A stretch of 28,996 bases of DNA from a virus. Its lineage: Duplodnaviria; Caudoviricetes. Positions 833 to 24,203 of the stretch are shown here, piece after piece; the stretch's first letter is position 1, and the number at the start of each line of letters is the position of its first letter. A program made the translations under genes and the position numbers. Under the pieces are notes generated by a model that was given only the letters and a program-made list of their open reading frames with translations, had not been told where the DNA came from and searched no databases. The stretch spans positions 1-28,996 of the IMG/VR virus record IMGVR_UViG_3300030376_003152. One strand, written 5' to 3'.

Positions 833-2359
833 TTAATCAACATTGAATATAGCCCATCTACTTTGTGAAGTACAACTGTGTAGTGTTCTAGGGCTTATTG
901 TAAGTTCAACTTCAACCGGCCCTTTATCATCAGGGTATGGTACAGAAACAGAACGAGTAATATAATCTTTAAATTGTAAGTCTACAAAGTCAGTAGCACT
1001 TCTTTCAAATCTTAGTTTAAGGATATTAGTGTTATCTTCTCCACCTTCTCTCATTAAATCCCAAATCTTTGTATCAGTAATAAGAAGTGTTAAGGATATT
1101 TCATATTGTCTTTGTCCGGCAGTATGGTTAGACATAACTTGATTATTATAGTTACCAATAAATCTTTGACCTACAATGTTATTATTTATTGTTAAACTAC
1201 CTGATTTGACTCTAGCAAAAGTTTGACCATATACTTCAATAGTACCATCATGGAATAAGTATGGTATTTTATTCTCTGAATAGTTTGCAAAAGCCGTTAC
1301 ATCTGTTACTTGTCTTTGTGGTGAATAATTTTGTGGTGCATCAAATGCACTACGAGTTACTAACTCTACTGTATTTTTAACTTCTTGACCTTCTTCAAAT
1401 GTTATATTAAGAGAATTAACTTGACACCCTGTAAAGATTCTAGAGTATACTTCTTCTTCAGGAGTTGCAGATGCTTGTACTGTTTGAACTGAATAGTCTG
1501 CACCGGATTTACCACCTTTTGCATATGCAACATCTAAAGCAAATGAAGGTAATGTTCCGTTATTGTTTTCAGTCATAGTATAAACAAATGGATTACTTGC
1601 ATGTATTAAACCATGAGTACTATCATCAAGAACAACGCCTGTAGGTGTAGGGTCAGGATATGTATGGTGTCCTACACCTGAATCTGTTAATCTTCTAATG
1701 ATTGCACTATTAGTTCCATCTGTATCTATGGTTATTCCCGATGTATCTGTAGTAGTAGGACTAGACATAGTAAAACTCATACTTCCTAATGTATAGTATA
1801 ACCACATTGGATTATTCATTGATACTTCTAAACTTCCACCACTTACTGTTTCACCTTTAGTAAATTGAAATCCTAAATTTCTAGAACCACCTGCAACTAA
1901 ATTTAATTCACCTGTTTCTACTTCTACATTTGGTGGTGAAAATGTATTTACAAGACCTAACCAATTGTCAGATAATATAGTTGTTTTAGAATTAACAGGT
2001 GGCGTAGGAACGGGTGCTCCAAAAGATTGTATTGTCGCTTTAACATCTGTATCTGCACCCATATCCCCTCTTATATCTCCTGTAACTGTTATAGTGCTTA
2101 CAGTATTAGATTCAATAAGATATATGTTCTTTTTAGTGGCATCTGCCGTCAATTCTATTTCTATAAAACAACCAACATATAGATTAGGAACTAAATCTAT
2201 TCCTATATCTCCACCCGCATATCCATCTAATGTAACAGTACTACTATTATTTGTTGTATTAGTAGCAGCAGTTTGCACATCTGCACCTAGATATATACGG
2301 GCTTCCGGTGCTAAACTAGCAGTTACTCCTGCTCCTACAAATATCTCATTACTTACCAT
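833..2359 (-). CDS. Major tail tube protein
   Basis: 508 aa, T/S/G/V beta-rich; tail-tube-like segments (FTGCQVNSLNITF, SGSLTINNN, RQYEISLTL); directly upstream of chaperones. Confidence 0.75.
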   Translation of the reverse strand: MVSNEIFVGAGVTASLAPEARIYLGADVQTAATNTTNNSSTVTLDGYAGGDIGIDLVPNLYVGCFIEIELTADATKKNIYLIESNTVSTITVTGDIRGDMGADTDVKATIQSFGAPVPTPPVNSKTTILSDNWLGLVNTFSPPNVEVETGELNLVAGGSRNLGFQFTKGETVSGGSLEVSMNNPMWLYYTLGSMSFTMSSPTTTDTSGITIDTDGTNSAIIRRLTDSGVGHHTYPDPTPTGVVLDDSTHGLIHASNPFVYTMTENNNGTLPSFALDVAYAKGGKSGADYSVQTVQASATPEEEVYSRIFTGCQVNSLNITFEEGQEVKNTVELVTRSAFDAPQNYSPQRQVTDVTAFANYSENKIPYLFHDGTIEVYGQTFARVKSGSLTINNNIVGQRFIGNYNNQVMSNHTAGQRQYEISLTLLITDTKIWDLMREGGEDNTNILKLRFERSATDFVDLQFKDYITRSVSVPYPDDKGPVEVELTISPRTLHSCTSQSRWAIFNVD

Positions 2360-2918: not shown

Positions 2919-3106
2919 AATTTAGCAACCTCTTCTTGTATACTTTTAGCAAATTCTTTATCAAATACACTATGGGCTTCTGCTATAACTGCTTCATCAG
3001 ATAAAGCAAATTCTGCATAAATACTATCTTTTAACATATCATTACGTTCCTGTTGGATTGCAACAATTTTTTTGAATAATTTTGTTACGTCTTTCATACT
3101 AATCAC
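2915..3106 (-). CDS. Hypothetical protein (63 aa, neck region)
   Basis: 4-nt overlaps with both neighbours suggest translational coupling. Confidence 0.55.
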   Translation of the reverse strand: MISMKDVTKLFKKIVAIQQERNDMLKDSIYAEFALSDEAVIAEAHSVFDKEFAKSIQEEVAKL

Positions 3107-4203
3107 GATATAAAATGAACAATGTTTTTCTTCCCATTTAAGATTGCATTTGCTTCCTCTAATAAAATATCGTGTTTAGATTTCAAATCAATATTAGAAC
3201 CTGTTTCAGTAATTAATATTGAATTATCATCATGTCTAATTATTTCAGCCGCTACAATCTTAGTAGCCGCTTCATGAATAGGTGCAGGTACACGACTTTC
3301 ACCTGCTACATATGTTACTTTAATAGAATGGTGTTGATTATGGGGATATTCTTTTCTAAAGAAAATTTTACCATCATCCTTCATCATCCAAAAATCATCA
3401 TTTCTACCCGATGTTTGATTATCAGCAAAAGAAGTTACTGAACCATAAGTAGAAGATAATGTACAATATGTACCATCTTCTCCATCTAATAATGAACTAA
3501 TAATTATTTTTGTCTTATCTTCACTATCTGTTGTTGCATAAAAGAAATCAGAAACATGTACACTTGAAGCACCATCAGCCGTAATAGATTTAGAAGTAGT
3601 TTCTCCTGTAAATTTAGCAGTTTTCATAGGATACACTTCATTAATTGTATCTACAATTTGACTTGCCGTAGTTTTTGGGCCAAAATTATCATAAAAGTGT
3701 CTAATACTATTGTTTGCTAAATTCTTAATATAGAATGTATATGTAGTTGGGTTTCCAACGGTTAGTGTAATTGTCCAATCATTAGTAGTAGCAGAATCAG
3801 GTACTATTAAAGATGCGGAAGCAGAAGCCAAATCTTTCCATGTATCACCTTGATATACTTCTAATCTAACTAATTTTTGAATTTTAGGATAACTTAATTG
3901 AACAAAACCGACATAATCCTTGTAAGCAACAACAGGATATGCATTCCTTCTTTGAGTTTCTAAAGAATGAAATTCATCTCTATAAATAATAGGTCTATAA
4001 GATGATTTAATTGTATCATCTATTTTTTCTTCTGCTCTTTTTATTAGTTTACCTATTTCAGAAAGATTAGGAGTTGTATTTGCACTAAACGAACTTATTT
4101 GTAATAAATTAGAAATATCTGCGTGTGTAGTATAATGACCATTACCTGCTGAATAATCTACATTTATATTTGTAAAATCACTAGGGGATGAAACTTTGCC
4201 CAT
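3103..4203 (-). CDS. Head-tail connector/adaptor (HK97 gp6/SPP1 gp15-like) with large beta-rich insertion
   Basis: N-terminal YTTHADI...LIKRAEEKID and C-terminal IKVTYVAG...VPAPIHEAATKIVA are typical of adaptor proteins; SD GGAGG upstream. Confidence 0.7.
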   Translation of the reverse strand: MGKVSSPSDFTNINVDYSAGNGHYTTHADISNLLQISSFSANTTPNLSEIGKLIKRAEEKIDDTIKSSYRPIIYRDEFHSLETQRRNAYPVVAYKDYVGFVQLSYPKIQKLVRLEVYQGDTWKDLASASASLIVPDSATTNDWTITLTVGNPTTYTFYIKNLANNSIRHFYDNFGPKTTASQIVDTINEVYPMKTAKFTGETTSKSITADGASSVHVSDFFYATTDSEDKTKIIISSLLDGEDGTYCTLSSTYGSVTSFADNQTSGRNDDFWMMKDDGKIFFRKEYPHNQHHSIKVTYVAGESRVPAPIHEAATKIVAAEIIRHDDNSILITETGSNIDLKSKHDILLEEANAILNGKKNIVHFIS

Positions 4204-4204
4204 T

Positions 4205-6070
4205 TTAATTTCCTCCCACCAATGCCTTCAGACTATTATAGCCTCTTTTAATATTTAAAAAATCTTTCTGTACTCTAACAACATCCATATCCATTGAAGT
4301 TGGTTCTTTATTTTTTGTTTGTGGTTTTATTTTAAACTTATAATTTTTAGGTGTAGTATCAAGAAGCATATCCATGTCATAAGTTACATCTGCATATAAT
4401 ATTGGTATTCTACTTTTACCTGCTATAAAACCTGATTTTGATTTACTTTTACTCATCAGGTCTTTAGCATAAATTCTTACTGCATCTATATCTAATTCAC
4501 CTACATTTTCTATGTTTCTATACTCATCTAAAATATCTACTAAAGATATGTCAAGTTTATCACTAAATAGTCTATAATTTGCAACAATACTATCCCAAGT
4601 TTCTTTATCTTCTTCTATTTGTTCTTTATCTGAAACTTCTTCTTCTATAATTCTAAAACCGTGTTTTTCACGTTTTACCTCATTGTCTATTAAAGATTCT
4701 AACAAAGTGTTATCCATTTTAGGAAATTGTTGCATAACTTCAAAAATCATACCTGCTAATTTTTCTACGTTCTTATCTAATTTAACATCTATACCTTCAT
4801 CTAAGTTTAATTTAGAACGAATACTTTCAACCCACTTTTGTTTATCTTTACTTGAACCTTCTTTTGTTTTATTTATTTCTATTTCTAAAGTACCTAATTT
4901 TAATTCTCTTCTTTCTGCACTTAGATATCCGTAAATAATATTTTTTAATGGGTGCTTATCTTGAGACATAATAATTTTTTCTAAATATTTTTCAACTAAT
5001 TTAGGCTTAGTACTTATTTCATCTATAGCATCATATGCATCTTCTAATGTGTCAAATTTTTTACTACCTGTAAGTCCTTCAACAAGAAACATATCCTTTT
5101 CTTTTTCATACTTACCTGCTCCTTTATCGCCAACCAATTTTAGATGTAATAAAGGAATATTATTTCTTGTATCTTTTTCTGAAAAGGTTTTCTTTTTCTT
5201 TCCCTCAAAAAACATTCTTGCTTCATATTGCTCCTCAGATTCATCTTTTTGTTGATTTGGTTTATCAAAATGTTCTAATTTGCTTCCAAGTATTCCACTT
5301 TTAAAAGGAAAATTTTCACTATCAAAAGCACCAAATCCTTCCTTGATAAATACTTCATTTACATATTTTTTAGTATCTAAAGTAATTTTAGCACCACTCA
5401 CTTGTTCCTGAACAACAAAATAATTTTTAATCATCTCATACAATATAGGCTTACCACTATCTATAGCACTCATAAGTGCTCCACTCCCACTTTCTCTTTT
5501 TGGGCCTATCTCTACATCACTGTCTATTTCTTGCCCTCTTTCAATATTATCTACTAATCTCTCTATTGCAGGTTGATTATCTATTTGTGTTAATTTAAAA
5601 TTCTGTAGTTTTTCAGCGTTTAAATTAAGAGGTTCAGTTATAGTAATAGTAACTGTACCATCTGTGTTGTGTTTTGTTTTTTCAGGGAAATATTCGTTTG
5701 TACTTAATGCTTGTATTAAATTAAGCATATCTGTTTTTTCTATCTCTTCTAAATAGTGTGTGAAAAATTTATTTATTTCTCCTTCAGTAATAAGGTCAAT
5801 TAATCCTTCTTCTCTTTCTCTTAATTTCTTAAAATCTTCATTGTCATATTGTAATAATTGAGAAAGTTTAGGTTTAATATCATCCATCTTCTTAGTTCTG
5901 TCTTTTCTAGGTACGGCTCTATAAAATATATAACCTAACATACTTAGAAAAATAGGATTTTTTTTATCACTAACTAAGGCATCAAAACCCTTACTTAATT
6001 CCGTATTATCAAGTATGACATCCTGCTTAGTATTAGGCACTAGGTCAGCAGGAATTGTTATTTCGCCCAT
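4205..6070 (-). CDS. Hypothetical protein, 621 aa, K/E-rich
   Basis: Long ORF co-oriented with the operon; no motif recognised. Confidence 0.7.
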   Translation of the reverse strand: MGEITIPADLVPNTKQDVILDNTELSKGFDALVSDKKNPIFLSMLGYIFYRAVPRKDRTKKMDDIKPKLSQLLQYDNEDFKKLREREEGLIDLITEGEINKFFTHYLEEIEKTDMLNLIQALSTNEYFPEKTKHNTDGTVTITITEPLNLNAEKLQNFKLTQIDNQPAIERLVDNIERGQEIDSDVEIGPKRESGSGALMSAIDSGKPILYEMIKNYFVVQEQVSGAKITLDTKKYVNEVFIKEGFGAFDSENFPFKSGILGSKLEHFDKPNQQKDESEEQYEARMFFEGKKKKTFSEKDTRNNIPLLHLKLVGDKGAGKYEKEKDMFLVEGLTGSKKFDTLEDAYDAIDEISTKPKLVEKYLEKIIMSQDKHPLKNIIYGYLSAERRELKLGTLEIEINKTKEGSSKDKQKWVESIRSKLNLDEGIDVKLDKNVEKLAGMIFEVMQQFPKMDNTLLESLIDNEVKREKHGFRIIEEEVSDKEQIEEDKETWDSIVANYRLFSDKLDISLVDILDEYRNIENVGELDIDAVRIYAKDLMSKSKSKSGFIAGKSRIPILYADVTYDMDMLLDTTPKNYKFKIKPQTKNKEPTSMDMDVVRVQKDFLNIKRGYNSLKALVGGN

Positions 6071-6082
6071 ACATCAAACCAC

Positions 6083-6769
6083 CTATGCAAGCCATTTAGC
6101 CCAAGCAACGCCTTTAGTTATAGCCGCACCTAAACCTAATCCACTTACAGGAGGTGTATATGTCATTTGACCTGTATTAGGGTCTATCCAATATGCATTG
6201 TTCATATTATCGTATCCGGCAGGTGGAACAGGATATCCACTACCATTGTTCATAGCCATTTGTTGTTGCATCATAGTATTATTAATTCCTGTTCCCATAT
6301 TGCCGCCTTGTATGTTTTGTGGGTTCATTCCCATTGAGTTAGCCATTGGCGGTTGTGTAGGTGCTGCTGCTCCACTAAATCCTTGAGACTCTAAATATTG
6401 TGCTTTAGCCATTCTACGTTGCATAATTACTTCTGAATTAATTGCTGAATTTAATAAATTTTGTAAATCTAATTCTATGTTAGCAGCAGTAATTTCTTGA
6501 AAAGTACTTTTAACGTCTGTGTTTAAAACAAGCCCCGCACTTGTTGTAGTAAACTCTAATTGGGCTAACATATCACCAACAACTCTAGCAACAACATCTT
6601 CAATCAATTGTTCCATGCTAGATAAGAATGCTTCTCCATGATATTGAAAGAAATCTTCTACATGATTCTCTTGTAATGTTAATAAATTGTTCATTGTTTT
6701 AAATTGATTTTGTTGACCATTTGATATAGTATTAGCCAATTGTGTGTTGCTTGTTCCGAATAATCCCAT
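6083..6769 (-). CDS. Hypothetical protein: helical N-half, Q/M/P/N/G low-complexity C-half, amphipathic C-terminal helix
   Basis: 228 aa; NTMMQQQMAMNNGSGYPVPPAGY; ends GLGLGAAITKGVAWAKWLA; TAATG overlap with upstream gene. Confidence 0.7.
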   Translation of the reverse strand: MGLFGTSNTQLANTISNGQQNQFKTMNNLLTLQENHVEDFFQYHGEAFLSSMEQLIEDVVARVVGDMLAQLEFTTTSAGLVLNTDVKSTFQEITAANIELDLQNLLNSAINSEVIMQRRMAKAQYLESQGFSGAAAPTQPPMANSMGMNPQNIQGGNMGTGINNTMMQQQMAMNNGSGYPVPPAGYDNMNNAYWIDPNTGQMTYTPPVSGLGLGAAITKGVAWAKWLA

Positions 6770-7455
6770 TAGTTCTCACTCTCCGCCTGTACGCCCTTGC
6801 TTGTAACCTTAACGCCTTCGGTCAATAAGACTTTCACTCTCTTGGTATTAGATTCGTTTTCTATTAACAACCTAAATAACTCTTCTTCTTTACTTTCAAC
6901 AGTTCCTTGAGGAGGTTTAATTGTCCAACCTAATCCCGCAAGTGATTGTATATCTCCTTGTTTTAGACTAGTTAATGGCCCACTAGATAATGGATTTAAA
7001 TTAGGCATTTTTGGAATATAAGCACTGTATGACAACCCATGTTCTTCTGCTAACATTTGTTGTTCTAACATTTCATATTGTCTGTGTATCTGTGCATGTT
7101 TATCACAATAAGTTCCTCTCATTGGATATCCTTTTCTAACTTTATGTAGTGGTAATGGTGGTCTTAAATTATCACTTGCTTCCCAAACCTTTTGAGTTCC
7201 ACAAACAACACATCTGTCTTTCATGTTATATTTGAAACTATATGGAAATTTTAAAAAAGATTTTTTTTCCGGTTTTAATATTTTAATTATTTCTTTCAAT
7301 TGTTTTTTTGGCTTTAAGTTTTTAAATTCGTACAACATTACTGTACCTGCTGCTCTCGCTTGGTCATGCCTATCCATGAAGGCATTTGACGCTACAGTTG
7401 TAGTGGTTGCACCAATTAAATTAGGTGGCTGATAGTTCATCGTCATGGTCTTCAC
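6769..7455 (-). CDS. Zinc-finger protein (CxxC...CxxH) with ArfGAP-like motif
   Basis: RCVVCGTQKVWEASDNL...GTYCDKHAQIHR; directly downstream of GTPase. Zinc ligands seen; GAP identity speculative. Confidence 0.6.
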   Translation of the reverse strand: MKTMTMNYQPPNLIGATTTTVASNAFMDRHDQARAAGTVMLYEFKNLKPKKQLKEIIKILKPEKKSFLKFPYSFKYNMKDRCVVCGTQKVWEASDNLRPPLPLHKVRKGYPMRGTYCDKHAQIHRQYEMLEQQMLAEEHGLSYSAYIPKMPNLNPLSSGPLTSLKQGDIQSLAGLGWTIKPPQGTVESKEEELFRLLIENESNTKRVKVLLTEGVKVTSKGVQAESEN

Positions 7456-7457
7456 AC

Positions 7458-8129
7458 CTAGTAGTCCTTTATCATTGTTAAGATTCCTCTGTATACCATT
7501 GTGGAGTCAGTTTTAGCACTAACAATGTATTTGAAACAAGGTATTCCCTTTTCATTTAACTTTTGCATTCCATTTTTAAATGCCTCAAAAATAGGATGTT
7601 TTTCAATTGGCCCATCATGTTCATATTTGTCTTTCCATAAATCATATTTATTGGCCCATATACCTACTGCAATAGGATAATCGTGGTCTTTTTTCTTTTT
7701 TAATTTATTATTAACATTCCAATGAGGTGAACAAATACTATCTACTAAGAATGTCCAACATAATTGTTGTTCGATATCATAATGTTTATTCATGTGCCTA
7801 TCATCAATTAAAAAAATAATGTATTTTACTCTACGTTCTTTCATATCTTTTATCCATTCTGTCCAATAAATAGTTTGTCCACCGATATCGGCAGTTTTTA
7901 CAGTATGAGCATTACCATCTAATTTTATATATTTTCTAGATGCCCTTTCTAATCCTACTGTTCTTTCCATAATATCGGGTACTTCGCCTCTTGTTCTCAA
8001 TTGGTGGTGTAAGGTGGTCTTCCCTGCTTTACTCGCACCATATACACCAAAGGGTATTGAATGTAATCTTTGATATATTTTATTCAATCCCTCAACCATT
8101 AATATGGCGAATCCCGCCATTACTGACAC
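7458..8129 (-). CDS. Ras-superfamily small GTPase, Arf/Sar1-like
   Basis: All five G motifs: G1 GASKAGKTT, G2 RTVG, G3 DIGGQ, G4 WANKYD, G5 VSAK; N-terminal hydrophobic/amphipathic helix. Confidence 0.9.
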   Translation of the reverse strand: MSVMAGFAILMVEGLNKIYQRLHSIPFGVYGASKAGKTTLHHQLRTRGEVPDIMERTVGLERASRKYIKLDGNAHTVKTADIGGQTIYWTEWIKDMKERRVKYIIFLIDDRHMNKHYDIEQQLCWTFLVDSICSPHWNVNNKLKKKKDHDYPIAVGIWANKYDLWKDKYEHDGPIEKHPIFEAFKNGMQKLNEKGIPCFKYIVSAKTDSTMVYRGILTMIKDY

Positions 8130-8133
8130 AATA

Positions 8134-8358
8134 TCACCACAAATGATTCCAAAAGTCTACCAATCCATTCCACAATATTGAGATTGTATTGACCCCAAAT
8201 ATTGCTAATGTTTGACCTATAAAGAAACAAGCAATGGAACTTATAATACCCCATATCCAAAACCTTGCTCTAAGAAACCAAATATCAGCAGAATGTGCTC
8301 TTTGCAAATCATAAGCCATAGCGGTTTCATCAAAACCCATTAGGATTTCTCCAACCAT
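8134..8358 (-). CDS. Small membrane protein (74 aa)
   Basis: Hydrophobic segment FWIWGIISSIACFFIGQTLAIFGV and Trp-rich amphipathic tail; SD GAGGTGA upstream. Confidence 0.75.
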   Translation of the reverse strand: MVGEILMGFDETAMAYDLQRAHSADIWFLRARFWIWGIISSIACFFIGQTLAIFGVNTISILWNGLVDFWNHLW

Positions 8359-8371
8359 TATTTCACCTCAA

Positions 8372-8797
8372 TCATTGTTCCAATGTTAAAAAGGAAGGAC
8401 TTACACCTTCTGTATTGCTCTTAATTACGGGTAAATTATTATCACCATAAACGTTAGTAGGGGATTGTACTTGGTTATTCCATGTCTGTTGGAAATTTCT
8501 AAAAGACTCTCTAACTCTTTTACGGTTCTCTTCTTCTCTTGCTCTACGACTCCAATAAGCATCAATGCGTCTTTGTAATAATGTTTCTTCGATATAATCA
8601 TTAGCAATTAAATCAAATACTGCTTTCATTATCATAATTCCACCTATTGTAGATATACCAAACAATACTGCGTGTGCTTCAACAGTATAAGGAAAACCTA
8701 CACCATATTGGGCATAGAAGTAAACGTTTACTCCACTAACTGCACCAACAAAAAGAATAGTCATTACTAATCTTGTATCTGTATCTATGCTTGGCAT
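8372..8797 (-). CDS. Membrane protein with two TM helices and a charged coiled-coil tail
   Basis: TM-like LVMTILFVGAVSGVNVYFYA and AVLFGISTIGGIMIMKAVF, then RRAREEENRKRVRE; ATG at 8797 (MPSIDT) preferred over 8812. Confidence 0.75.
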   Translation of the reverse strand: MPSIDTDTRLVMTILFVGAVSGVNVYFYAQYGVGFPYTVEAHAVLFGISTIGGIMIMKAVFDLIANDYIEETLLQRRIDAYWSRRAREEENRKRVRESFRNFQQTWNNQVQSPTNVYGDNNLPVIKSNTEGVSPSFLTLEQ

Positions 8798-8802
8798 TGT
8801 AA

Positions 8803-9081
8803 TCACGCCCACTCTAGGGAGTAATGACCTGTTCCTGTTATATCAACAAAAAGACCTTTAGCACAAAATCTACCATGCATATCATATTCAAAAGAACCAT
8901 TAGCGGCTAATACCATTCTACAAACTTCTACATCACCGGATGCAGAAGCATCATCACTATCATAAACAGAAATAGTTACTGCTGAACCTGAAACATTAGA
9001 GGCATGTACACTCATCAGTTTACACTTACCTTTGAAAACCAATGCATCAGCCGTCTTGACTCCACTACCACTACAACCTAT
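8803..9081 (-). CDS. Small beta-rich protein, probable virion accessory
   Basis: Track ORF 8803..9042; the frame is open upstream through ATA at 9081 (IGCSGSGVKTADALVFKG), which overlaps the previous TAG. Start uncertain. Confidence 0.55.
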   Translation of the reverse strand: MGCSGSGVKTADALVFKGKCKLMSVHASNVSGSAVTISVYDSDDASASGDVEVCRMVLAANGSFEYDMHGRFCAKGLFVDITGTGHYSLEWA

Positions 9082-9503
9082 TCTCTCACTTCCTTATTGT
9101 CTTCTGAAGGTGTTTCTTTCTTAGGCGTTTCTATCTTTTTTGCTTTTTTAGCAGATGTTTTCTTTGCAGGTGCTTTTTTAGCAGGTGCTTTTTTAGCAGG
9201 TGCTTTTTTAGCAGGTGCTTTTACCTTCTTAGGAAATAATATTTTTTGTGCTTGATTACGGGTATCGCCTTCTTTTAACTCATTAGTTAATCTAATTAAT
9301 TCATTAAACTTATAGTCATTAAGTCTTGCTATATCGGCTTCATCCATCTTATCGAATGTACATGTAAGGTTTTCACCACCTAATATGTTTATTACGTGGT
9401 CTAATGGTATTGTTGTTTGTTGGTTAAAATGTATAGGGTATATTACCCCACCGATTTTAATATCTCTTGGGCTTGCTTGGTTCGTTAATGTTACTTGTGT
9501 CAT
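9078..9503 (-). CDS. Protein with histone H1-like basic KKAPA-repeat tail
   Basis: KKVKAPAKKAPAKKAPAKKAPAKKTSAKKAKK; SD AGGAGA upstream. Confidence 0.75.
   Translation of the reverse strand: MTQVTLTNQASPRDIKIGGVIYPIHFNQQTTIPLDHVINILGGENLTCTFDKMDEADIARLNDYKFNELIRLTNELKEGDTRNQAQKILFPKKVKAPAKKAPAKKAPAKKAPAKKTSAKKAKKIETPKKETPSEDNKEVRE
9166..9222. repeat. 15-bp tandem repeat (GCAGGTGCTTTTTTA, about 3.8 copies) encoding KKAPA
   Basis: Units start at 9166, 9181, 9196, 9211. Confidence 0.9.
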
Positions 9504-9957: not shown

Positions 9958-11310
9958 TCAAGCACTCTTTATGTTAGTTATCTTACCTTGACCTTTGAAG
10001 AAAGAACAACATACTTCACCAATAGTTCTGTACATTGCTTGGTTTCCTAAAGTTCCAACACCGAATGGGTTTCCGTTAGAAATTCCATCCTCGAAATATT
10101 CTGTAGGTTTCATAACTGATAACCATAGATGGTCTGTATCTAAGATAAAGATATCACTCAATCCATTTGTTAGGCTTGCTTCAGTTGTTGAAGCCATATC
10201 CTTACAAGGGATTAATGGTATGTCATAGTATGTTGCAACTCTGAAACCAACTTCAGCACCTTTAACTCCACGAACACCATTATGTGTAGGAACAATTTCT
10301 TTCCTATCCATAAATCTCTCTTGACTTTGTAGTAAGTCAGAGATGTGTTGTATAGTATCGTAGCCTGTTAAGATACATTTTGGGTTTCCACCATTTTGAC
10401 GGATTCTGCGAATCATGTCATTTAATAGTGTTAGAGTTAATACTCTAGCAGAACCACTTGCATAACTTGCACCGTAATCAACTTCAGCATCCAAGAAATC
10501 AGGCACGGCAGTAATAGTTTCAGTACTAACTGTAACTCCTCTGTCTTGTCCATAAATTCTTACTAATTGTGGGTCAAGTGCTTCGTTAGTACCACTTTCA
10601 CCATCTTCTGTTAAGTTAGCAGTATACATTGCACCTATTTCAGCACCATCTGTTACAACCTTATACAAAGATGTATAGTTGTTAGTCATACCTGTAATAC
10701 CTGCTGCTGAATATGTTTCAAGAGGTGTTAATAACATCTTGTTCTGTACTTCAGCATGGTGCTTACCCATATCTTCACGGATTATAGCACGTATATCACC
10801 AACACCGTCATCAATAGCAGCAAGTTCCATTGCAAGTTCTGAAAACTCGAATTTATGTGCTATTGTTTTAGGCGTTACTTTTAGGGTTGTGTATTCAGGG
10901 GCTAATGCCGGAATACCGGATAATGCTGCATTCTCAGCAACTCCACCAATTAGGTCTGCTTTAGGAGATGCACTTCCTGCTGCTCCTGAACCAATTGCAA
11001 AAGAAGAACCACTACCACCTTGAGGTCGGCTCTTTAGAACTCTCCAACCACTTGATGTATATGGCCTCTTAGCAATCATAGACAAAGCATTAACTTCTTG
11101 GTTAAGCATTGACCATACTTTCTGTCCGTAAAGAACATTGTATAGGTCTGTCATTCCTGTTGCACCGCTAAAAGCGGTTTGTAAATCGTGTCCTGCTCCT
11201 GCTAGTCCACCAACTACTCCTGCACTCTTCAACAAAGCATTACCGTTACCGCCTCTTAAGCCGTATGATGCTGCTTCTAAATCTCTCATTGTTTTTATAT
11301 ATCCACTCAT
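9958..11310 (-). CDS. Major capsid protein (HK97 fold)
   Basis: 450 aa after protease/scaffold; HK97-like segments YGQKVWSMLNQEVNA, VTPKTIAHKFEFSE, YYDIPLIP, IFILDTDHL, QGKITNIK; SD GGAGTGA. Confidence 0.9.
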   Translation of the reverse strand: MSGYIKTMRDLEAASYGLRGGNGNALLKSAGVVGGLAGAGHDLQTAFSGATGMTDLYNVLYGQKVWSMLNQEVNALSMIAKRPYTSSGWRVLKSRPQGGSGSSFAIGSGAAGSASPKADLIGGVAENAALSGIPALAPEYTTLKVTPKTIAHKFEFSELAMELAAIDDGVGDIRAIIREDMGKHHAEVQNKMLLTPLETYSAAGITGMTNNYTSLYKVVTDGAEIGAMYTANLTEDGESGTNEALDPQLVRIYGQDRGVTVSTETITAVPDFLDAEVDYGASYASGSARVLTLTLLNDMIRRIRQNGGNPKCILTGYDTIQHISDLLQSQERFMDRKEIVPTHNGVRGVKGAEVGFRVATYYDIPLIPCKDMASTTEASLTNGLSDIFILDTDHLWLSVMKPTEYFEDGISNGNPFGVGTLGNQAMYRTIGEVCCSFFKGQGKITNIKSA

Positions 11311-11323
11311 ATCTTATCACTCC

Positions 11324-11965
11324 TTAATTATATTTCCTCGCTATATCAGCAATCTCATTCCATGATAGGTTACTTACATCACTAGGAATTTCTATTGATT
11401 GTGATTTAACAATCTCATCATTTTGTACAGTTAAAGATTTGCGTAGTTCTGCAAATTCTTCTTTCAAAGCAATTACATCTGAACGAGCATCATATGATGC
11501 TGCTTCAGCATTTGCTTTCTTAACGTCTAATTCTTCTGTAAGCCTTGCTTCAAATTGCTTGCTTAGAGAATCGTATGCAATCTTTTCCATTCTTTCTGCT
11601 TTGAATGCTTCATATGCTTTTTCAACATTTTCTGCACTTAAGTTAAGAGTAGAGAAGTCAGAATCTTCTAATCCCTTTGTAACATCTAAATCAGCAGGGG
11701 TTGGTTTTGGATTACCGTTATCAACAACAAGTTCTCCGGCTTCCATGTCTCTTGTTGAATCTTCATCAAGAGCCTTTTCTTCCATATCCATCTCATCGTC
11801 ATCCATATCCTCTTCAACCTCTTCTGTATCCATGTATGCCATATCACCCTTTGTTTCAAGGGTCGCGTCTGTCGTATTTTCTTCAGTTTTTTCTAACACT
11901 GAAGAATTAACTTGTTTCATCAAGTCATTTAATTCTTCAAGTGCTTTTTCCAATTTTTCACTCAT
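11324..11965 (-). CDS. Putative nested in-frame scaffolding protein (213 aa)
   Basis: GGAGGT SD (11972-11977) followed by in-frame ATG at 11965 (MSEKLEKALEEL) exactly at the end of the protease domain. Confidence 0.6.
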   Translation of the reverse strand: MSEKLEKALEELNDLMKQVNSSVLEKTEENTTDATLETKGDMAYMDTEEVEEDMDDDEMDMEEKALDEDSTRDMEAGELVVDNGNPKPTPADLDVTKGLEDSDFSTLNLSAENVEKAYEAFKAERMEKIAYDSLSKQFEARLTEELDVKKANAEAASYDARSDVIALKEEFAELRKSLTVQNDEIVKSQSIEIPSDVSNLSWNEIADIARKYN

Positions 11966-12505
11966 TGTATTACCTCCAACATCTTGTTTTAAAATGTCGA
12001 ATTTCGCTTCGGGATTAATTCCCTTTTCACATATGGTTACTTCATGAAGTTCTAACTTTTCTATTTCGTTATACTCTCCATATTCATCATTTGTCTTCTG
12101 TTTCTTAGATATGGCTTGTCCACCAATACTAAAGGAACGAAGAGTTCCTTTTCTAATACCTCTTGAAATTTCTTTTGCTTTTTCTATATCATCTCTTAAT
12201 TTGATAACAACATAAAAACCAACATCATCTACACCTGTCTTGTGTAATACTCCATTAGTATCTCGATACTTCTCTACTACTTCACCAACTTGAACATTAG
12301 AATGATTTGACATTACATTTCTATATTTTGTTTCTTTCATATATTTTTGTACTGCTTCATCTAATGCCTGTAATGTAATTAAATCATTTTGTTTATCTAC
12401 AATTTCTATAGAGGCATACCCCCCAATAACTAAATCATCAGACTTTAAAATTCTAAATTCATGATTAGAATCTGCCTTCATTAAAAGAGATTCCGCCATC
12501 ATCAT
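11324..12505 (-). CDS. Prohead protease fused to acidic/coiled-coil scaffold domain
   Basis: HK97-type protease motifs GYASIEIVDKQND, SNH, GTLRSFSIGG, LHEVTICEKGINPEA, then D/E-rich and coiled-coil C-half. Confidence 0.9.
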   Translation of the reverse strand: MMMAESLLMKADSNHEFRILKSDDLVIGGYASIEIVDKQNDLITLQALDEAVQKYMKETKYRNVMSNHSNVQVGEVVEKYRDTNGVLHKTGVDDVGFYVVIKLRDDIEKAKEISRGIRKGTLRSFSIGGQAISKKQKTNDEYGEYNEIEKLELHEVTICEKGINPEAKFDILKQDVGGNTMSEKLEKALEELNDLMKQVNSSVLEKTEENTTDATLETKGDMAYMDTEEVEEDMDDDEMDMEEKALDEDSTRDMEAGELVVDNGNPKPTPADLDVTKGLEDSDFSTLNLSAENVEKAYEAFKAERMEKIAYDSLSKQFEARLTEELDVKKANAEAASYDARSDVIALKEEFAELRKSLTVQNDEIVKSQSIEIPSDVSNLSWNEIADIARKYN

Positions 12506-12537: not shown

Positions 12538-15159
12538 TTAGTCGGCACTTTCAGGAGGAAATTTTAATTTAGCATATTTATCTTCTCTTATATCCCATAA
12601 ATTTTCATTATCTTTATTGTCTAACATTTCTTGTTTTTTACCTGTCCATGCTATCCATGTATTTTTCTCATCTAATGGTACAACCCGCAGATGCATTCTT
12701 GTATCGAATTTATCTCCTTCTAATTTATATTCGTGATATCCATCTTTCTGAACACCTAAAATTAAATCTCCACTATCTAATAAATCATCTTCATCAACAT
12801 TAGTTGCTACTATAGCAGGGAACTTACCCGATTTACCAAATAAGTTATACACATCTTCAGTATCTTCTATGTCTATAGTCCATGCTAGTTTCTCATCTTT
12901 TATTAACAAAACAAAATCTAAATTACCATCTTCACGTTGATATATTTTAAATGTAGTATTTTTAGGAATGTTCTTTTTTAATTCCTCAATATCTTTTTCT
13001 AAAACATCTTCTCTTGCTTGAAATTTATTTGGGTGTATATATACAATATCATCTTGTTTCTTCATCCATGACATAAGACTATCTTCACGCCCTTCAAATA
13101 ATTCATCAAAATCTTCTTTATAGTGTTTCACAACAAAATCTAAAACCTTATTGAATGGTTTCGGTCTGTCTCCATATTCTATAATATCATTCCTAATAGC
13201 CATTCTTAATTCTGCTCTTTTTGTTTTTATAATATCAGTAAGTTGTTCTTTCCATAAATCTATATTATATAATGCATTTTTCTGCATTAGTGTATCTCCT
13301 TCAAAACCATAAATAGTAAAACCATCTAAATTTTCTTTTAGAATAATTTCAGCATTACCGTGTATATCATCAGTAACATAATAAGATTTTTTAATTCCGG
13401 CCTTTTTATGTTTTCTCTTACCTTGCACTTTATCTGATAACCCACTACTTACTCTAAATAATCCACCCATTGTTCTACCTGCTACAAACTCTACAAAATC
13501 GGCTAAAGATTTTTTAGTTTTACCTGCAAGTTGTTCTAATGTTATAATGCTATCTGATTCAGTAACTTCCGGTAATTCTATTACTTTAGCAGAATATAAA
13601 CTAAAACCATCTTTTGTCTTCTTTACTTCATCTACCTTGACTCTAATTATATCTCCAATTTTTACACATTGTTTTGTATTTAGTGCCTTACCTACAGGAA
13701 TGTATGCTTTATCTTCTAATTCTACGGTTTTATATTTTCTAGTATCTTCAGCAGATACAGGGCCAATTCCCATAGTGTAACTATGTAAACCACTTTTGGT
13801 CTTCTTATCATCTAAAACTATTACATCTAAATCAATAAATTTTTTCCATTTAATCCATTTTGGGTTTTTCTTTTTACCAATAAGATAAGTAGATTCAATA
13901 TCTTTAATCACTACACCTTCAGAACTAGGTAATATCATAATATCTTTAGCATAGTCTTCTATTTCTTTTAATGAATCTGCAATGCGAGTATCTTTTTTAG
14001 ATGGGAATGCTAAATTTTCTGTAGAATGCTGACTATATTGATAGAATAAAGTATTTATTCTTTCACGTAGGGGTTCATCTGCAACCATTTTACCTTCATG
14101 TTTCATTATATCAAATACGTGAGCAGATAATCTACCTTTAGTTTCCTTTTTGAAAACATGTGATATTGTATCTGCTCTATGTAATGGTTCATCATTCAAA
14201 AATAGAGTTAATTCAGCATCTAATATACAGTCTCCGAAATTTTTCTTTTTCATTTCTTTTACCTGTTGAGGACATTTATCAGTAATATCTTTTTTATTAT
14301 AAGAATAAATAGTTACAGTATCATCTGTTTTATGTATTTGTATTCTCATACCATCATATTTTTCTTGTACTAACCATTCTCCACTAAATCCCTTTAGTTC
14401 TTTAATATCATCTATTTCAAAAATTCTATACAATGGCTTGTTAGGAATTAAAAAATCAACCTCTGCTTTTTCTTCTTCACTTTTTTGAGCCTTTGCAATC
14501 TGTACATCTCTTAAATTTTCCCACTTAGATTCAGGATATATTTCCGTATACATTTCTTGTATTTTTACCATACCTGCTTTAATTTTATTATGTATTCTTT
14601 TATCATTAGTGCTTTCATTACCATAATGTTCTATTACGAATAAAGGTATATCACTAACTTTCAAATCTAATCCCATAATACCTCTTGTTATTAAATCGGG
14701 TTTCATGTCAAATTGTTCCCACAACTTTTCCGGTAAAGCATTAGAATGACTTCTCATAGCATAATGTAAAAATGCAATTAATACCTCTTCTTTTTCTAAA
14801 AAAGTATCAATTACTTTAGTATCAAAATGTTTACTAAAAGGGTCGCTTATTTCGTCTGATTGAAATCTAAGTTTTTTTACGGCTTCAAATACCTTTCTTG
14901 CTTCATCAGAAGTTGGGTCAACTACATCTTTATCAAACAAAACATCTTCATCTATATATTTTTTTAATTCCGTTGCAAAACTACTAATGTTATCAAAATC
15001 TTCCTTCATCATCATTATGACTTTTTTCCATTCAGAAGTATATTCAGCAGGGTCTTCTCTTGCTGAAAGATAGGCATATCTAGTACGTTCAAAAAAATCT
15101 AAAATGCGTTGTGTTAACGAATCTTTTTCTTTTTCAAATGCTAAACCTGTTTGAGTCAT
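12538..15159 (-). CDS. lig: ATP-dependent DNA ligase with N-terminal extension and C-terminal LigD-phosphoesterase-like domain
   Basis: Motif I QEKYDGMRIQIH, III ILDAEL, IIIa HVFDIM, IV EGVVIKD, V WIKWK, then OB-fold start DLDVIVL; 873 aa. Confidence 0.9.
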   Translation of the reverse strand: MTQTGLAFEKEKDSLTQRILDFFERTRYAYLSAREDPAEYTSEWKKVIMMMKEDFDNISSFATELKKYIDEDVLFDKDVVDPTSDEARKVFEAVKKLRFQSDEISDPFSKHFDTKVIDTFLEKEEVLIAFLHYAMRSHSNALPEKLWEQFDMKPDLITRGIMGLDLKVSDIPLFVIEHYGNESTNDKRIHNKIKAGMVKIQEMYTEIYPESKWENLRDVQIAKAQKSEEEKAEVDFLIPNKPLYRIFEIDDIKELKGFSGEWLVQEKYDGMRIQIHKTDDTVTIYSYNKKDITDKCPQQVKEMKKKNFGDCILDAELTLFLNDEPLHRADTISHVFKKETKGRLSAHVFDIMKHEGKMVADEPLRERINTLFYQYSQHSTENLAFPSKKDTRIADSLKEIEDYAKDIMILPSSEGVVIKDIESTYLIGKKKNPKWIKWKKFIDLDVIVLDDKKTKSGLHSYTMGIGPVSAEDTRKYKTVELEDKAYIPVGKALNTKQCVKIGDIIRVKVDEVKKTKDGFSLYSAKVIELPEVTESDSIITLEQLAGKTKKSLADFVEFVAGRTMGGLFRVSSGLSDKVQGKRKHKKAGIKKSYYVTDDIHGNAEIILKENLDGFTIYGFEGDTLMQKNALYNIDLWKEQLTDIIKTKRAELRMAIRNDIIEYGDRPKPFNKVLDFVVKHYKEDFDELFEGREDSLMSWMKKQDDIVYIHPNKFQAREDVLEKDIEELKKNIPKNTTFKIYQREDGNLDFVLLIKDEKLAWTIDIEDTEDVYNLFGKSGKFPAIVATNVDEDDLLDSGDLILGVQKDGYHEYKLEGDKFDTRMHLRVVPLDEKNTWIAWTGKKQEMLDNKDNENLWDIREDKYAKLKFPPESAD

Positions 15160-19766: not shown

Positions 19767-21392
19767 CTATTCTGTTCTTCTATCTACATTCCTATTTCCT
19801 GCTTCAGCAGGTAGTCCACTAAACCGCTTATCAGGGCCGACACTATTGCGAGCCTTATTCTTTGTGGGGTTTGGATTCATTTGTGGAGTAGATTCACCCA
19901 TACCTGCTTCCATCATTTGACCCATTTGACTAGCATCAATATTAGTTCCTGCGTAAGGGTCTGTTTCAACCATCTCTTCTTCCATTGGCCCTTGTTCTGT
20001 AGGAGGTGGTGGGGGTTTAACAAATGTAAATCTACCTTCATCATCCATATTAACTTCAAATCCTAAATTCTTTATAGAAGCAGCAACATTAACTTCAATT
20101 TCTCTCTTTCGTAATTTAGCAATTTCATCTTCTTCTTCTGATGGTGGCAATTTTAATTCCCAATCTGTAATACCAAACTCCTTTGTTACGAATGGGAAAA
20201 CATAATTATTCCAAATTGTTTGAGCCATTTCTACGGCTCTATTGGTTACAAGTATTTGCATACCCTCATTATTTAATCCACCACTTGCAGAATTATCAGA
20301 CATAAATATTTTACTTACTCCATAGAAAGCAGATATTCTATCACGTAAATCTTCTTTGACTTGTATATAATCCATCTCTTTTAGACTATCCATAAATTTA
20401 ACCCACTCAATAGAACCTTTACCATTTTCAGATTCAATTCCCATAACAGGAATAAAGTGTGGGTCTGTTTCCATTTTTTCTTTTACACTTCTCCAAAAAG
20501 ATTTCATAGAATCCATGTTTCTAGTTTGTACTGCTAACAAACCTTTTGGCATTCTAGCCTTTGTGTAAGAAGAATTTACATAATTTTCCATTGCAGTTAA
20601 AGTAGTAACTTGATTCCATAATGTAATTATTGGAGACATACCATATAATCTAGAAGGTGAATATTTACTAAAATGCAAAACCTCTCCCTTAACAAAATAT
20701 TGTTCTTCACCGTTTACTCTATTTACATAATGTACAGGATGTAATTCAGAATTACACATTTCACATATTCCACTAGAAGAAGTATCTAACATAGTTCTGT
20801 GTTTCAAACATGTGTAACCATCTATCCCCCTTTCACCTAATTCATTAGAATAAATGTGCATTGTTACGGGGTCTCCACGATATACTTCTTTTATTCTATG
20901 CATTTGAATATCTCCATTATTATCCATAAAATATTCTTTAACCATTACAAGGTAAGCATCATCCATAATATTTAGGTCATCTTCCATTTCTTTTAGAACA
21001 TCAATAAACATTTGTTCTGACTTATTTACATATCCACCTAATAACTTTTTAGCATATTCTAATTGGGCTTCATCAGCCTTTACTAAATTTAAAGATTCAC
21101 AATTACTACATTTAGATACAGGGGTTTTATGTTCTTTACCACAATCTGCACACTTTCTTAAAAATGATTCTTCCCATGTATATCCTCTTCTAAATACCTC
21201 TTGTTTTAATTGAGTAGTACATGTTCTCACAACTGTTGAATTAGTAGCAATTTGATAAATAATAGGAGATGTTAACAGATATGAAGTATTCTTTTCTTGA
21301 ATACCCATATTGTATACTTGTCTATCTGCGGGTTTAGGTGTAGTTCTTCTAAATAGATTTCTAATACTAAAGGTGCGTTGTTCTTCTACCAT
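19767..21392 (-). CDS. Portal protein with two inserted zinc-binding motifs
   Basis: 541 aa downstream of terminase; portal motifs EVLHFSKYSPSRLYGMSPI, RMPKGLL, RDRISAFYGVSKIF; CADC..CSNC and CLKH..CEMC insertions. Confidence 0.85.
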   Translation of the reverse strand: MVEEQRTFSIRNLFRRTTPKPADRQVYNMGIQEKNTSYLLTSPIIYQIATNSTVVRTCTTQLKQEVFRRGYTWEESFLRKCADCGKEHKTPVSKCSNCESLNLVKADEAQLEYAKKLLGGYVNKSEQMFIDVLKEMEDDLNIMDDAYLVMVKEYFMDNNGDIQMHRIKEVYRGDPVTMHIYSNELGERGIDGYTCLKHRTMLDTSSSGICEMCNSELHPVHYVNRVNGEEQYFVKGEVLHFSKYSPSRLYGMSPIITLWNQVTTLTAMENYVNSSYTKARMPKGLLAVQTRNMDSMKSFWRSVKEKMETDPHFIPVMGIESENGKGSIEWVKFMDSLKEMDYIQVKEDLRDRISAFYGVSKIFMSDNSASGGLNNEGMQILVTNRAVEMAQTIWNNYVFPFVTKEFGITDWELKLPPSEEEDEIAKLRKREIEVNVAASIKNLGFEVNMDDEGRFTFVKPPPPPTEQGPMEEEMVETDPYAGTNIDASQMGQMMEAGMGESTPQMNPNPTKNKARNSVGPDKRFSGLPAEAGNRNVDRRTE

Positions 21393-22766: not shown

Positions 22767-24203
22767 TCAAAGATTCAACCCTGTAACTCCACTCGCCATT
22801 AAGTTAACAGGCTTTTGGGTCGAATTGAATATATCCATGTCATCTAACAAGATAAAGGTTTCATTCGCCGACTGTGTTGCAGCGTTGGCTAATGCTAAAC
22901 TCATCACTAAATCGTCATGTGCACCAACACCCTCAAACCTACCCGAATCGGTAATACTAAACATTGATAATTCTTCTATCAACATGTTAGTTATTTTCTT
23001 ACTATTATTATCCCCATAAGGAAAATGTAACTTACCATTTTCTATATTCATTTGTAAATTTAAAATAATTTCTTGTTTCTTTCTTCTAGTGGTATTAAAG
23101 TCGTGTACATTTAAATCAGATACGTTTCTTAGTTCTTGAGTAAATGCCTTAGCAAAGGTGTTGGTCTCATAAAATATTTTATCCGGTTGAAATATTTTAC
23201 CAACAATGCGAATTTTTTCAATGTTTTCTCTAAATTCTACATTCTTGGCTCTGTCAATATGTACAATAGTTTTATTTTGATTTTCATCTACTTCTAATAC
23301 TGTAATTACATTGTAATCCCCATCAGTCGAAATAGCAGGGTCAACACCCACATAATATCTGTATCCTTTTTCTCTTCTATTTCCTAACTTTAAAATATAA
23401 TCTTTATTTTTACATTTTTCAATATAATCAGGATTAAATAAAGCAGTACCCGTAGATATAGGAACACACAAATATTCTCTTGTAAATTTTAAAGACCCGA
23501 TTTCAGTTTTTCTTTGCATAAGTGCTTCATAATCCCACCTTGCGGGCCAAAGTGGTTCATTTAATGAATTTAAACAAGGGTATTTATTAACAGTATATGC
23601 TTCATTTTCTTCTAATTGAGCAAATATATCTGTGTAAGTAAAAGGCGTTCCAATCATTCTAAGTTTAGAAGTATGGTGAAGTGTTGGTATCATGTCTCCA
23701 AAGAACCAATCAGTAACACGTTGAATTGCTGATAGGCTAAACTCCTTCAAGGGGTCATCAATAATTATTTCTTGAGGATGAAGTCCTCTAATCTGAGAAC
23801 CAACGGAACGTTCCAATATTTGATTTCCATTAGTTAACTGAATGTTTCCAATAGCCCAACCCCTAGTAGGTTTAAATTTCTTAAGTGCAGGGTGGTTAAA
23901 ATATCTATCAATTTCTCTCATATGAACAAGAGTCTGCTTTTGGTTAGATGAAATGTATAACATCTGATATGGAGGCTCTTGAAAAACTAAATTCCAAACA
24001 ACCCAACTATGCATGAATACAGATTTACCATGTCCTCTAGAACATATGATTACACTTCTTTGTGTTTCACCAAGTAATTGAAGCCACTCTTCTTGATGGT
24101 CAGCAAAATCCCACCCTAATACATTTTTAAAAAAATAAGGAAAAGAATTTTTAGATAGTTCCATGTCCATATCAGACATAAAATCTATATTACCAAACTC
24201 CAT
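22767..24203 (-). CDS. terL: Terminase large subunit
   Basis: Q-motif DHQ, Walker A CSRGHGKS, Walker B IIIDD, IGTP coupling motif, nuclease GVDPA and HDDLVMSLA. Confidence 0.95.
   Translation of the reverse strand: MEFGNIDFMSDMDMELSKNSFPYFFKNVLGWDFADHQEEWLQLLGETQRSVIICSRGHGKSVFMHSWVVWNLVFQEPPYQMLYISSNQKQTLVHMREIDRYFNHPALKKFKPTRGWAIGNIQLTNGNQILERSVGSQIRGLHPQEIIIDDPLKEFSLSAIQRVTDWFFGDMIPTLHHTSKLRMIGTPFTYTDIFAQLEENEAYTVNKYPCLNSLNEPLWPARWDYEALMQRKTEIGSLKFTREYLCVPISTGTALFNPDYIEKCKNKDYILKLGNRREKGYRYYVGVDPAISTDGDYNVITVLEVDENQNKTIVHIDRAKNVEFRENIEKIRIVGKIFQPDKIFYETNTFAKAFTQELRNVSDLNVHDFNTTRRKKQEIILNLQMNIENGKLHFPYGDNNSKKITNMLIEELSMFSITDSGRFEGVGAHDDLVMSLALANAATQSANETFILLDDMDIFNSTQKPVNLMASGVTGLNL

Follow-up and report, generated by a model that had tools for sequence, protein, structure and literature searches.

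Within a 28,996-nt stretch of the virus record IMGVR_UViG_3300030376_003152, which is 31% complete, five adjacent minus-strand genes form a compact block around a predicted small GTPase. Here, we refer to the five genes as A to E and to the whole analysed stretch as the window (coordinates in Table 1). The gaps between A and B, B and C, C and D, and D and E are 13, 4, 2-11 and -1 nt, respectively, in agreement with an earlier note, made from the sequence, which had described a run of five open reading frames (ORFs) with gaps of at most 13 nt, and a GGTGA/GTGA-like ribosome site is present at every start. Such tight spacing was rejected as proof of a module: the entire operon is tight, with 12 nt after E and 12 nt after the gene for the major capsid protein (MCP). 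Because the close packing runs through the whole operon, the module is delimited by synteny and not by spacing. All five genes are under purifying selection, and C is constrained more than the MCP: in comparisons with three relatives, dN/dS was 0.07-0.14 for A, 0.11-0.19 for B, 0.05-0.08 for C, 0.09-0.10 for D and 0.15-0.16 for E, compared with 0.25-0.28 for the MCP.

The A-B-C-D-E order is complete in 171 of the 189 distinct loci fetched, while the remaining 18 run into the edge of a contig or locus; thus, the block co-occurs in related viruses, which is what the earlier note had proposed to check by synteny. Per scan, only the best 60-80 loci were fetched, from 60, 541, 132 and 127 confirmed stretches, and near-identical genomes among them are not independent. 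The GTPase profile confirmed 541 viral stretches, and 48 of the 60 loci in the first set were complete for the five genes. In clade 1, the group of the window, 100 of 117 distinct loci carry the genes in order, 17 stop at an edge and there are no true exceptions; this set includes two contigs from one bacterial metagenome-assembled genome (MAG). A search of 1.84 billion representatives returned 88 matches, among them GTPases that are about 30% identical, and at this level of GTPase identity the block recurs in three further distant clades (clades 2-4). Clade 2, reached via P0252, comprises 127 viral stretches, of which 80 were fetched; the same five-gene order is present in 71 of 72 distinct loci, as counted with profiles built from the same clade-2 loci. 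Clades 3 and 4 were reached via P0253 and P0249, and the order is again A-B-C-D-E; a search of viral contigs with P0249 gave no match.

The genomic contexts of the block differ. Two clade-2 genomes are complete and contain homologues of terminase and capsid. In clade 2, the distance from the block to the terminase that comes after it is about 8 kb, as seen in G003, and that to the MCP is 23 kb. Because the fixed order co-occurs in four distant clades with different genomic contexts, we conclude that the five genes form one conserved unit. Some variation is superimposed on this order. Extra ORFs lie between C and D in some clade-2 loci. In clade 4, a gene of 250-260 aa with a long Asp/Glu-rich tail is inserted between B and C (L294:9229-9999; L303:9217-9999). 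A sixth gene, which encodes a small protein with two transmembrane (TM) segments, follows E in clades 2 and 4 (L240:12372-12638; L303:12221-12532), with 79 of the 80 clade-2 loci having it; it is absent from the window. Directly upstream of A, many clade-2 viruses (L213-L251) have an ORF of 2,000-3,000 aa, and the single one scanned gave no clear family.

When clade-1 profiles were compared with their positional counterparts in clades 2-4, the values were 22% for A, 56% for B (E 1e-4), 100% for C, 98% for D (E 6e-13) and 97% for E (E 5e-10), and the A profile reached 42% (E 3e-4) against A of clades 3 and 4. Off-diagonal values were below 3%, except for 17% between E and D, and each gene best matched its positional counterpart. 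For A and B, the comparison of clade 1 with clade 2 alone was non-significant (1-2%), and the values of 22% and 56% were obtained once clades 3 and 4 were added. Thus, the homology of A and of B across clades is weak and is supported mainly by position and anatomy.

In the GTPase tree, which was rooted at the midpoint and built from 46 sequences without Arf, Rag, Ras or MglA references, every clade forms a supported group, and a 96/95 branch separates the four clades, together with five unplaced sequences, from the rest. The sister set in this tree (P0272, P0288, P0299, P0305, P0318, P0319, P0321 and P0327) is more distant, and many of its members have hydrophobic N-termini; a search of plasmids with P0319 gave no match. 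Among 185,579 species genomes, a scan by short-motif pattern, which detects only relatives sharing these motifs, found two loci, both in one Maricaulis MAG (L138 and L139). A cellular origin of the block in a host genome was rejected for this case: L139 carries a ligase, a protease and an MCP together with the cassette and is likely a mis-binned virus contig.

C is predicted to be a Ras-superfamily GTPase. Its motifs G1 (GASKAGKTT), G2 (RTVG), G3 (DIGGQ), G4 (NKYD) and G5 (SAK) lie within a single domain, as in Ras-superfamily small GTPases, and the residues G36-K37-T38, T57, D81-x-G83-G84, N160-K161-x-D163 and S204-A205 are invariant in 60 of 60 homologues, in keeping with the earlier description of C as a complete GTPase. 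The more specific label Arf-like is weakened. Arf is the nearest-neighbour label, and C shares with the Arf family and Asgard ArfR (bioRxiv 10.1101/2024.02.28.582541) the G1-G5 motifs, a DxGG-type G3, Thr-x-Gly in G2, a Trp seven residues past the G3 Gln position and an N-terminal amphipathic segment that lacks a myristoylation signal. However, its Pfam Arf score of 21.2 bits is below the cut-off of 22.3, the residue before the G2 Thr is Arg instead of Pro, the catalytic Gln is not constant, the N-terminus starts with a hydrophobic stretch and a polybasic insert is present; also, C is virus-encoded and has four orphan partners. The switch-II signature of Arf proteins is wDvGGqxxxRxxW. In C, the Trp before DxGG and the switch-II Arg of this signature are missing, with Ala or Ser in place of the first Trp and Trp89 at the Arg position, and W92 is invariant. 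At E<=0.1, the 60 homologues matched the Pfam families MMR_HSR1 (59), SRPRB (57), Ras (50), Roc (46) and Arf (23), TIGR00231 was also matched weakly, and 8OUN ("GTP-binding protein", E 0.0065) was the sole match when PDB sequences were searched with the C profile. Altogether, the family assignment is diffuse, and C may work like Arf.

Of 60 clade-1 sequences, 13 have Gln at the catalytic position 85 and 47 have Glu; in clade 3 the residue is His. Arg56 lies directly before the G2 residue Thr57, and this Arg-Thr pair is present in 60/60, 29/30 and 5/5 sequences of clades 1, 2 and 3, respectively, and in 0/4 clade-4 sequences. MglA likewise has an Arg directly before its switch-I Thr, and there Arg53 beside Thr54 is an intrinsic arginine finger (PMC3199381; here and below, published sources are cited for the part of their text that was available), a role that Arg56 of C may share. 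C differs from MglA in its DxGG-type G3, in that the Gln is not fixed, and in the absence of the Arg from clade 4, and no Pfam match to a roadblock/LC7 (MglB) partner was found for A, B, D or E. Two further features of C are suggestive of membrane contact. The N-terminus is uniformly hydrophobic over ~13 residues and then amphipathic over residues 10-26 (computed moment 0.5-0.7), with a median best computed N-terminal moment of 0.56-0.61 across all clades, and the stretch of 26 residues that leads up to the G4 strand, with its polybasic insert, is likely a second membrane contact, its median net charge being +3 for clade 1 and +8 for clades 2-4.

For A, B, D and E, no Pfam, PHROG or NCBIfam family was matched at the thresholds used. 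The earlier note had taken A for a two-TM protein and B for a membrane protein, and the predictions agree with both: A has two hydrophobic segments, i.e. two predicted TM helices, in 33 of 36 homologues, and B has one, i.e. one predicted TM helix, in 39 of 42, together with a strongly conserved N-terminal segment. The earlier note had also given A a coiled coil; what is seen after the TM pair is a charged, polar and Gln-rich C-terminal tail, so that A appears holin-like in anatomy (1-3 TM helices and a charged C-terminus), although this anatomy is non-specific. D and E have no hydrophobic TM segments. E has a conserved N-terminal domain, a linker rich in Gly, Met, Asn, Gln and Pro, and a conserved, Gly-rich and amphipathic segment at the C-terminus, for which the hydrophobic moment is moderate (0.3-0.4); in all clades, E has a short hydrophobic N-terminal motif, 36-46% Q/M/N/G/P and an amphipathic segment near the C-terminus, as the initial description of a Q/M/P-rich protein with an amphipathic C-terminus implied. 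Searches of the ESM Atlas with D and E gave no usable match.

D is soluble and basic and contains CxxC-x31-CxxH. The zinc-finger assignment made in the earlier note fits clades 1-3, in which CxxC or CxxxG plus CxxH are kept, but not clade 4, in which three of the four ligands are lost. In the suggested fold check, the AF2 model of D was poor (pLDDT 58) and had no Foldseek PDB match at E<=1e-3, and the only fold hint is a non-significant row for T4 endonuclease VII (E about 8). In ArfGAPs, the zinc finger is of the C4 type, and an Arg that follows its final CxxC is conserved. An ArfGAP identity of D was rejected: the Arg after CxxH is not conserved (Met, Lys or other residues occur), the ligands are lost in clade 4 and ArfGap was not matched in Pfam. 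More generally, the labels GAP, GEF and polymerising effector that had been attached to the partners of C are not supported. Judged by adjacency, D is likely an adaptor of C, and polymerisation of E is a conjecture.

Membrane features are kept in all four clades: the TM helices of A and B, the N-terminus and polybasic insert of C, and the amphipathic helix of E. The products of the block likely act on the host membrane. Alternatively, C could function in the cytoplasm with two soluble partners, e.g. in counter-defence, translation control or SR-beta-like targeting, with A and B being mere tethers. The SRPRB and MMR_HSR1 matches of nearly all C homologues would fit this idea, as would the basic, soluble D with its non-significant fold hint. 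However, these Pfam matches are weak throughout and stem from the G-domain that such proteins have in common, and four of the five proteins have kept membrane-facing features across clades. We consider a purely cytoplasmic role unlikely.

The window is likely a magrovirus-type genome with a halovirus-like MCP. The closest annotated relatives of this MCP are those of HVTV-1 and HCTV-1 with 24-26% identity, and a ligase gene lies inside the structural module, which is the arrangement described for magrovirus groups A and B (PMC5434244). Because of this match in MCP and ligase layout, the host would belong to the Marine Group II archaea (Poseidoniales), which are abundant in the ocean. The genes of the window are nearly all on the minus strand, and the order is MCP, three small genes, the five-gene block and a 621-aa gene, with the tail tube gene further downstream. 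The placement of the block between capsid and neck genes, which the earlier note had emphasized, is correct for clade 1 but specific to this clade, and the label "neck" is positional.

The carriers of clade 3 have a different character. G001 (loci L305-L310; 110 kb, 79% complete) encodes PolB, a thermosome, a resolvase and RNA polymerase subunit A. Clade 3 thereby resembles magrovirus "group D", for which the available text of PMC5434244 describes such a gene set, reports the lack of a detected morphogenetic block and does not settle what these elements are; to this gene set, G001 adds the cassette and an SH1-type ATPase. The window proteins gave no match in clade-3 records (terminase 0/6, portal 0/4, MCP 0/2), nor did Pfam Terminase_6N (0/4), while the clade-2 controls were matched each time; the clade-3 records are incomplete. 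In G001 and G002, of which 82 selected ORFs were scanned, we identified a 238-258-aa HerA/FtsK-type ATPase (L308:14417-15133, minus strand), for which matches in a set of 50,697 phage records were confined to SH1, HHIV-2 and HCIV-1 (E 2e-3 to 8e-3). In profile comparisons with SH1-type ATPases it scored 97% (E 2e-11), as expected for an FtsK/HerA-type packaging ATPase. PHROGs and the RefSeq copies of SH1, HHIV-2 and HCIV-1 label this ATPase family "terminase large subunit". The three viruses are classified as tailless icosahedral Sphaerolipoviridae, and members of this family have an internal membrane. A conserved protein of 314 aa encoded near the ATPase (L308:7982-8926, minus strand) is a capsid candidate with distant clade-4 homologues (E 4e-12); it had no PDB or phage match, its best profile row was VP7 (3.7%, E 0.011), and its AF2 model, with a pLDDT of 30, did not confirm the single jelly-roll fold of sphaerolipovirus-like capsid proteins. 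A neighbouring 294-aa gene has 31 unnamed matches. Based on these data, clade 3 is likely, but not certainly, a tailless virus, and G001 is a candidate large tailless virus of marine archaea. G001 also encodes an AAA ATPase with a lid domain (L305:15800-17503, minus strand; Pfam AAA, E 4e-25), as well as a protein with one TM segment that matches the v-SNARE N-terminus weakly and below the cut-off (L310:11878-12621, minus strand; E 8e-4), and these two proteins are possible further membrane-remodelling parts.

Because the block occurs in elements without detected head-tail genes, we favor a host-facing over a virion role, and the same observation argues against the products being ordinary virion parts, the outcome that the earlier note had named as a refutation of its proposal. 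The block could nonetheless encode virion components, e.g. ejected or internal proteins that build a channel for DNA through the host membrane at entry. The clade-1 block does sit among structural genes, and ejection proteins can be hydrophobic and Gln-rich. Against such a role, the position of the block differs in clade 2, head-tail packaging genes were not detected in some carriers and the GTP-switch motifs are invariant. A virion role therefore seems improbable to us.

The block is kept across different genome layouts and likely different virions, is mostly membrane-facing and is absent from the halovirus relatives checked; for these reasons, we read it as a system whose target is the envelope of a host common to these viruses. 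Tentatively, and with slightly less than an even chance in our estimate, we suggest that it encodes a GTP-switched machine at the archaeal host membrane that times and opens the cell for virus release. Egress is preferred because viruses need to exit, because the holins of archaeal tailed viruses have been elusive, because A is holin-like and because the clade-1 block is in the structural operon. Head-tailed archaeal viruses lyse their hosts, yet their holin genes remain elusive, according to PMC10791045. In line with the earlier note, no holin or endolysin family was matched in Pfam or PHROGs among the 33 window proteins scanned, in a record that is less than a third complete. Holin-endolysin cassettes and archaeal egress systems resemble the block in having small one- or two-TM proteins, charged tails and a likely late operon (PMC10791045; for Adrikavirales holin candidates, PMC11706807). 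The block differs from them in that it has no family match and no endolysin but has a GTP switch and two soluble partners.

In this egress model, the five products would assemble on the inner face of the archaeal membrane. A and B, joined by the third small two-TM protein in clades 2 and 4, would accumulate late in the membrane as the lesion-forming part. C would dock by means of its hydrophobic N-terminus and basic insert and act as the timer; as in MglA, it may supply its own catalytic arginine, Arg56, which a partner would need only to position. D would be an adaptor or regulator of C, while E would dock by its amphipathic helix and serve as a scaffold bound to the membrane, bending or clustering it up to the point of rupture.

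Several observations weigh against this model. Holins need no GTPase. In Pfam, PHROGs and NCBIfam, none of the components showed a resemblance to known holins, pyramid proteins, ESCRT, coats, GEFs or GAPs. In HVTV-1, a lytic halovirus related to the window, the region from the capsid to the tail genes contains no annotated GTPase, and a search for C among GenBank phages gave no match; tailed archaeal viruses can thus lyse without C. The variable catalytic position and the loss of Arg-Thr in clade 4 leave the chemistry of hydrolysis uncertain. The capsid candidate of clade 3 has no significant match to SH1-type VP4 or VP7 and its model failed, and the clade-3 records, which are 20-79% complete, could hide a divergent head-tail module.

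It is also quite possible that the block remodels host membranes without lysis, as part of host takeover, giving rise to vesicles, replication or assembly compartments, a block of division or superinfection exclusion, and that it is the viral counterpart of ArvABC or of Arf/Sar1 coats. The same membrane anatomy and cross-clade conservation fit this possibility, and by inference a switch that can be reset is better suited to a process that runs in cycles than to a lesion made once. Moreover, the likely membrane-containing clade-3 virus would need to recruit a membrane. In Haloferax, vesiculation is driven by a small GTPase with an amphipathic helix at its N-terminus (PMC10927574), and Asgard ArfR, which has such a helix as well, targets membranes (bioRxiv 10.1101/2024.02.28.582541). 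ArvA/ArvB/ArvC (OapABC) of Haloferax are likewise archaeal and combine a small GTPase that has an N-terminal amphipathic helix with a Zn-type protein encoded downstream (PMC10927574). However, ArvABC is a cellular system of three genes, while the block has five or six, including two or three for integral membrane proteins. Membership in the ArvABC family was rejected, as no match to DUF2073 or DUF2072, i.e. to the ArvB/ArvC families, was found with 36 D homologues (at E<=10) or with single A, B and E proteins (at E<=0.1). Other points against non-lytic remodelling are that the head-tailed viruses of clades 1 and 2 assemble without a membrane and yet keep the block under strong selection, and that the clade-1 block is co-oriented within the late structural operon. 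On balance, our preference for egress stands. The wider proposal of an endolysin-free, GTP-timed egress machine, which would combine a membrane-anchored Arf-like switch that has its own arginine finger with holin-like membrane proteins and an amphipathic scaffold and would be common to head-tailed magroviruses and large tailless SH1-like "group D" viruses infecting the same ocean archaea, is rather doubtful. Judging from the sequences, what is real is a strongly conserved five-gene system that is unlike the known lysis and vesiculation systems compared here.

For the small gene before A, the likely start is an ATA that overlaps the previous stop, giving 92 rather than 79 aa, and its more distant homologues are about 90-105 aa. 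Another of the small genes encodes a 141-aa protein with KKAPA repeats and a weak match to the histone-H1-like HC2 (E 0.009), possibly a DNA-condensing protein. The gene that follows E is hypervariable, with lengths of 561-899 aa in the homologues detected and a dN/dS of 0.37-0.50, while its neighbours are conserved.

Table 1. Genes of the five-gene block and other annotated genes of the window.
Feature	Coordinates	Strand	Remarks
Tail tube protein	833-2359	-	PF18906, E 1e-14
"Neck" gene	3103-4203		Label inferred from position; unknown function in PHROGs
621-aa gene	4205-6070	-	Follows E
Gene E	6083-6769	-	228 aa
Gene D	6769-7446	-	225 aa; GTG at 7455 would give 228 aa
Gene C	7458-8129	-	223 aa; predicted divergent Ras-superfamily small GTPase
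Gene B	8134-8358	-	74 aa
Gene A	8372-8797	-	141 aa from ATG; in-frame GTG at 8812 would give 146 aa
Small gene before A	8803-9081	-	Likely ATA start
KKAPA-repeat protein	9078-9503	-	141 aa
MCP	9958-11310	-	Halovirus HVTV-1/HCTV-1-like; phrog_24667, E 2e-23
Prohead protease	11324-12505
ATP-dependent ligase	12538-15159		Within structural module
Portal	19767-21392
Terminase	22767-24203

In the literature, we found no work that pairs "magrovirus" with "GTPase", subscription papers not being covered, and "GTP" is absent from the main text of PMC5434244, PMC11706807 and PMC10160649, the supplements of which may annotate a GTPase. Likewise, no literature was found on group D with a jelly-roll capsid or on Singelaviria with Poseidoniales. 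The block adds a viral branch to the membrane-associated small GTPases beyond eukaryotes and Asgard archaea, and an SH1-type packaging ATPase is now linked to the group D elements, which had been unexplained. Because the block consists of five defined genes, it can be expressed in a model archaeon or studied on liposomes with no need for a culture of host or virus. If the wider egress proposal is true, a single lysis system would span two unrelated virion architectures and would represent a case of GTPase-driven membrane remodelling in viruses of prokaryotes.

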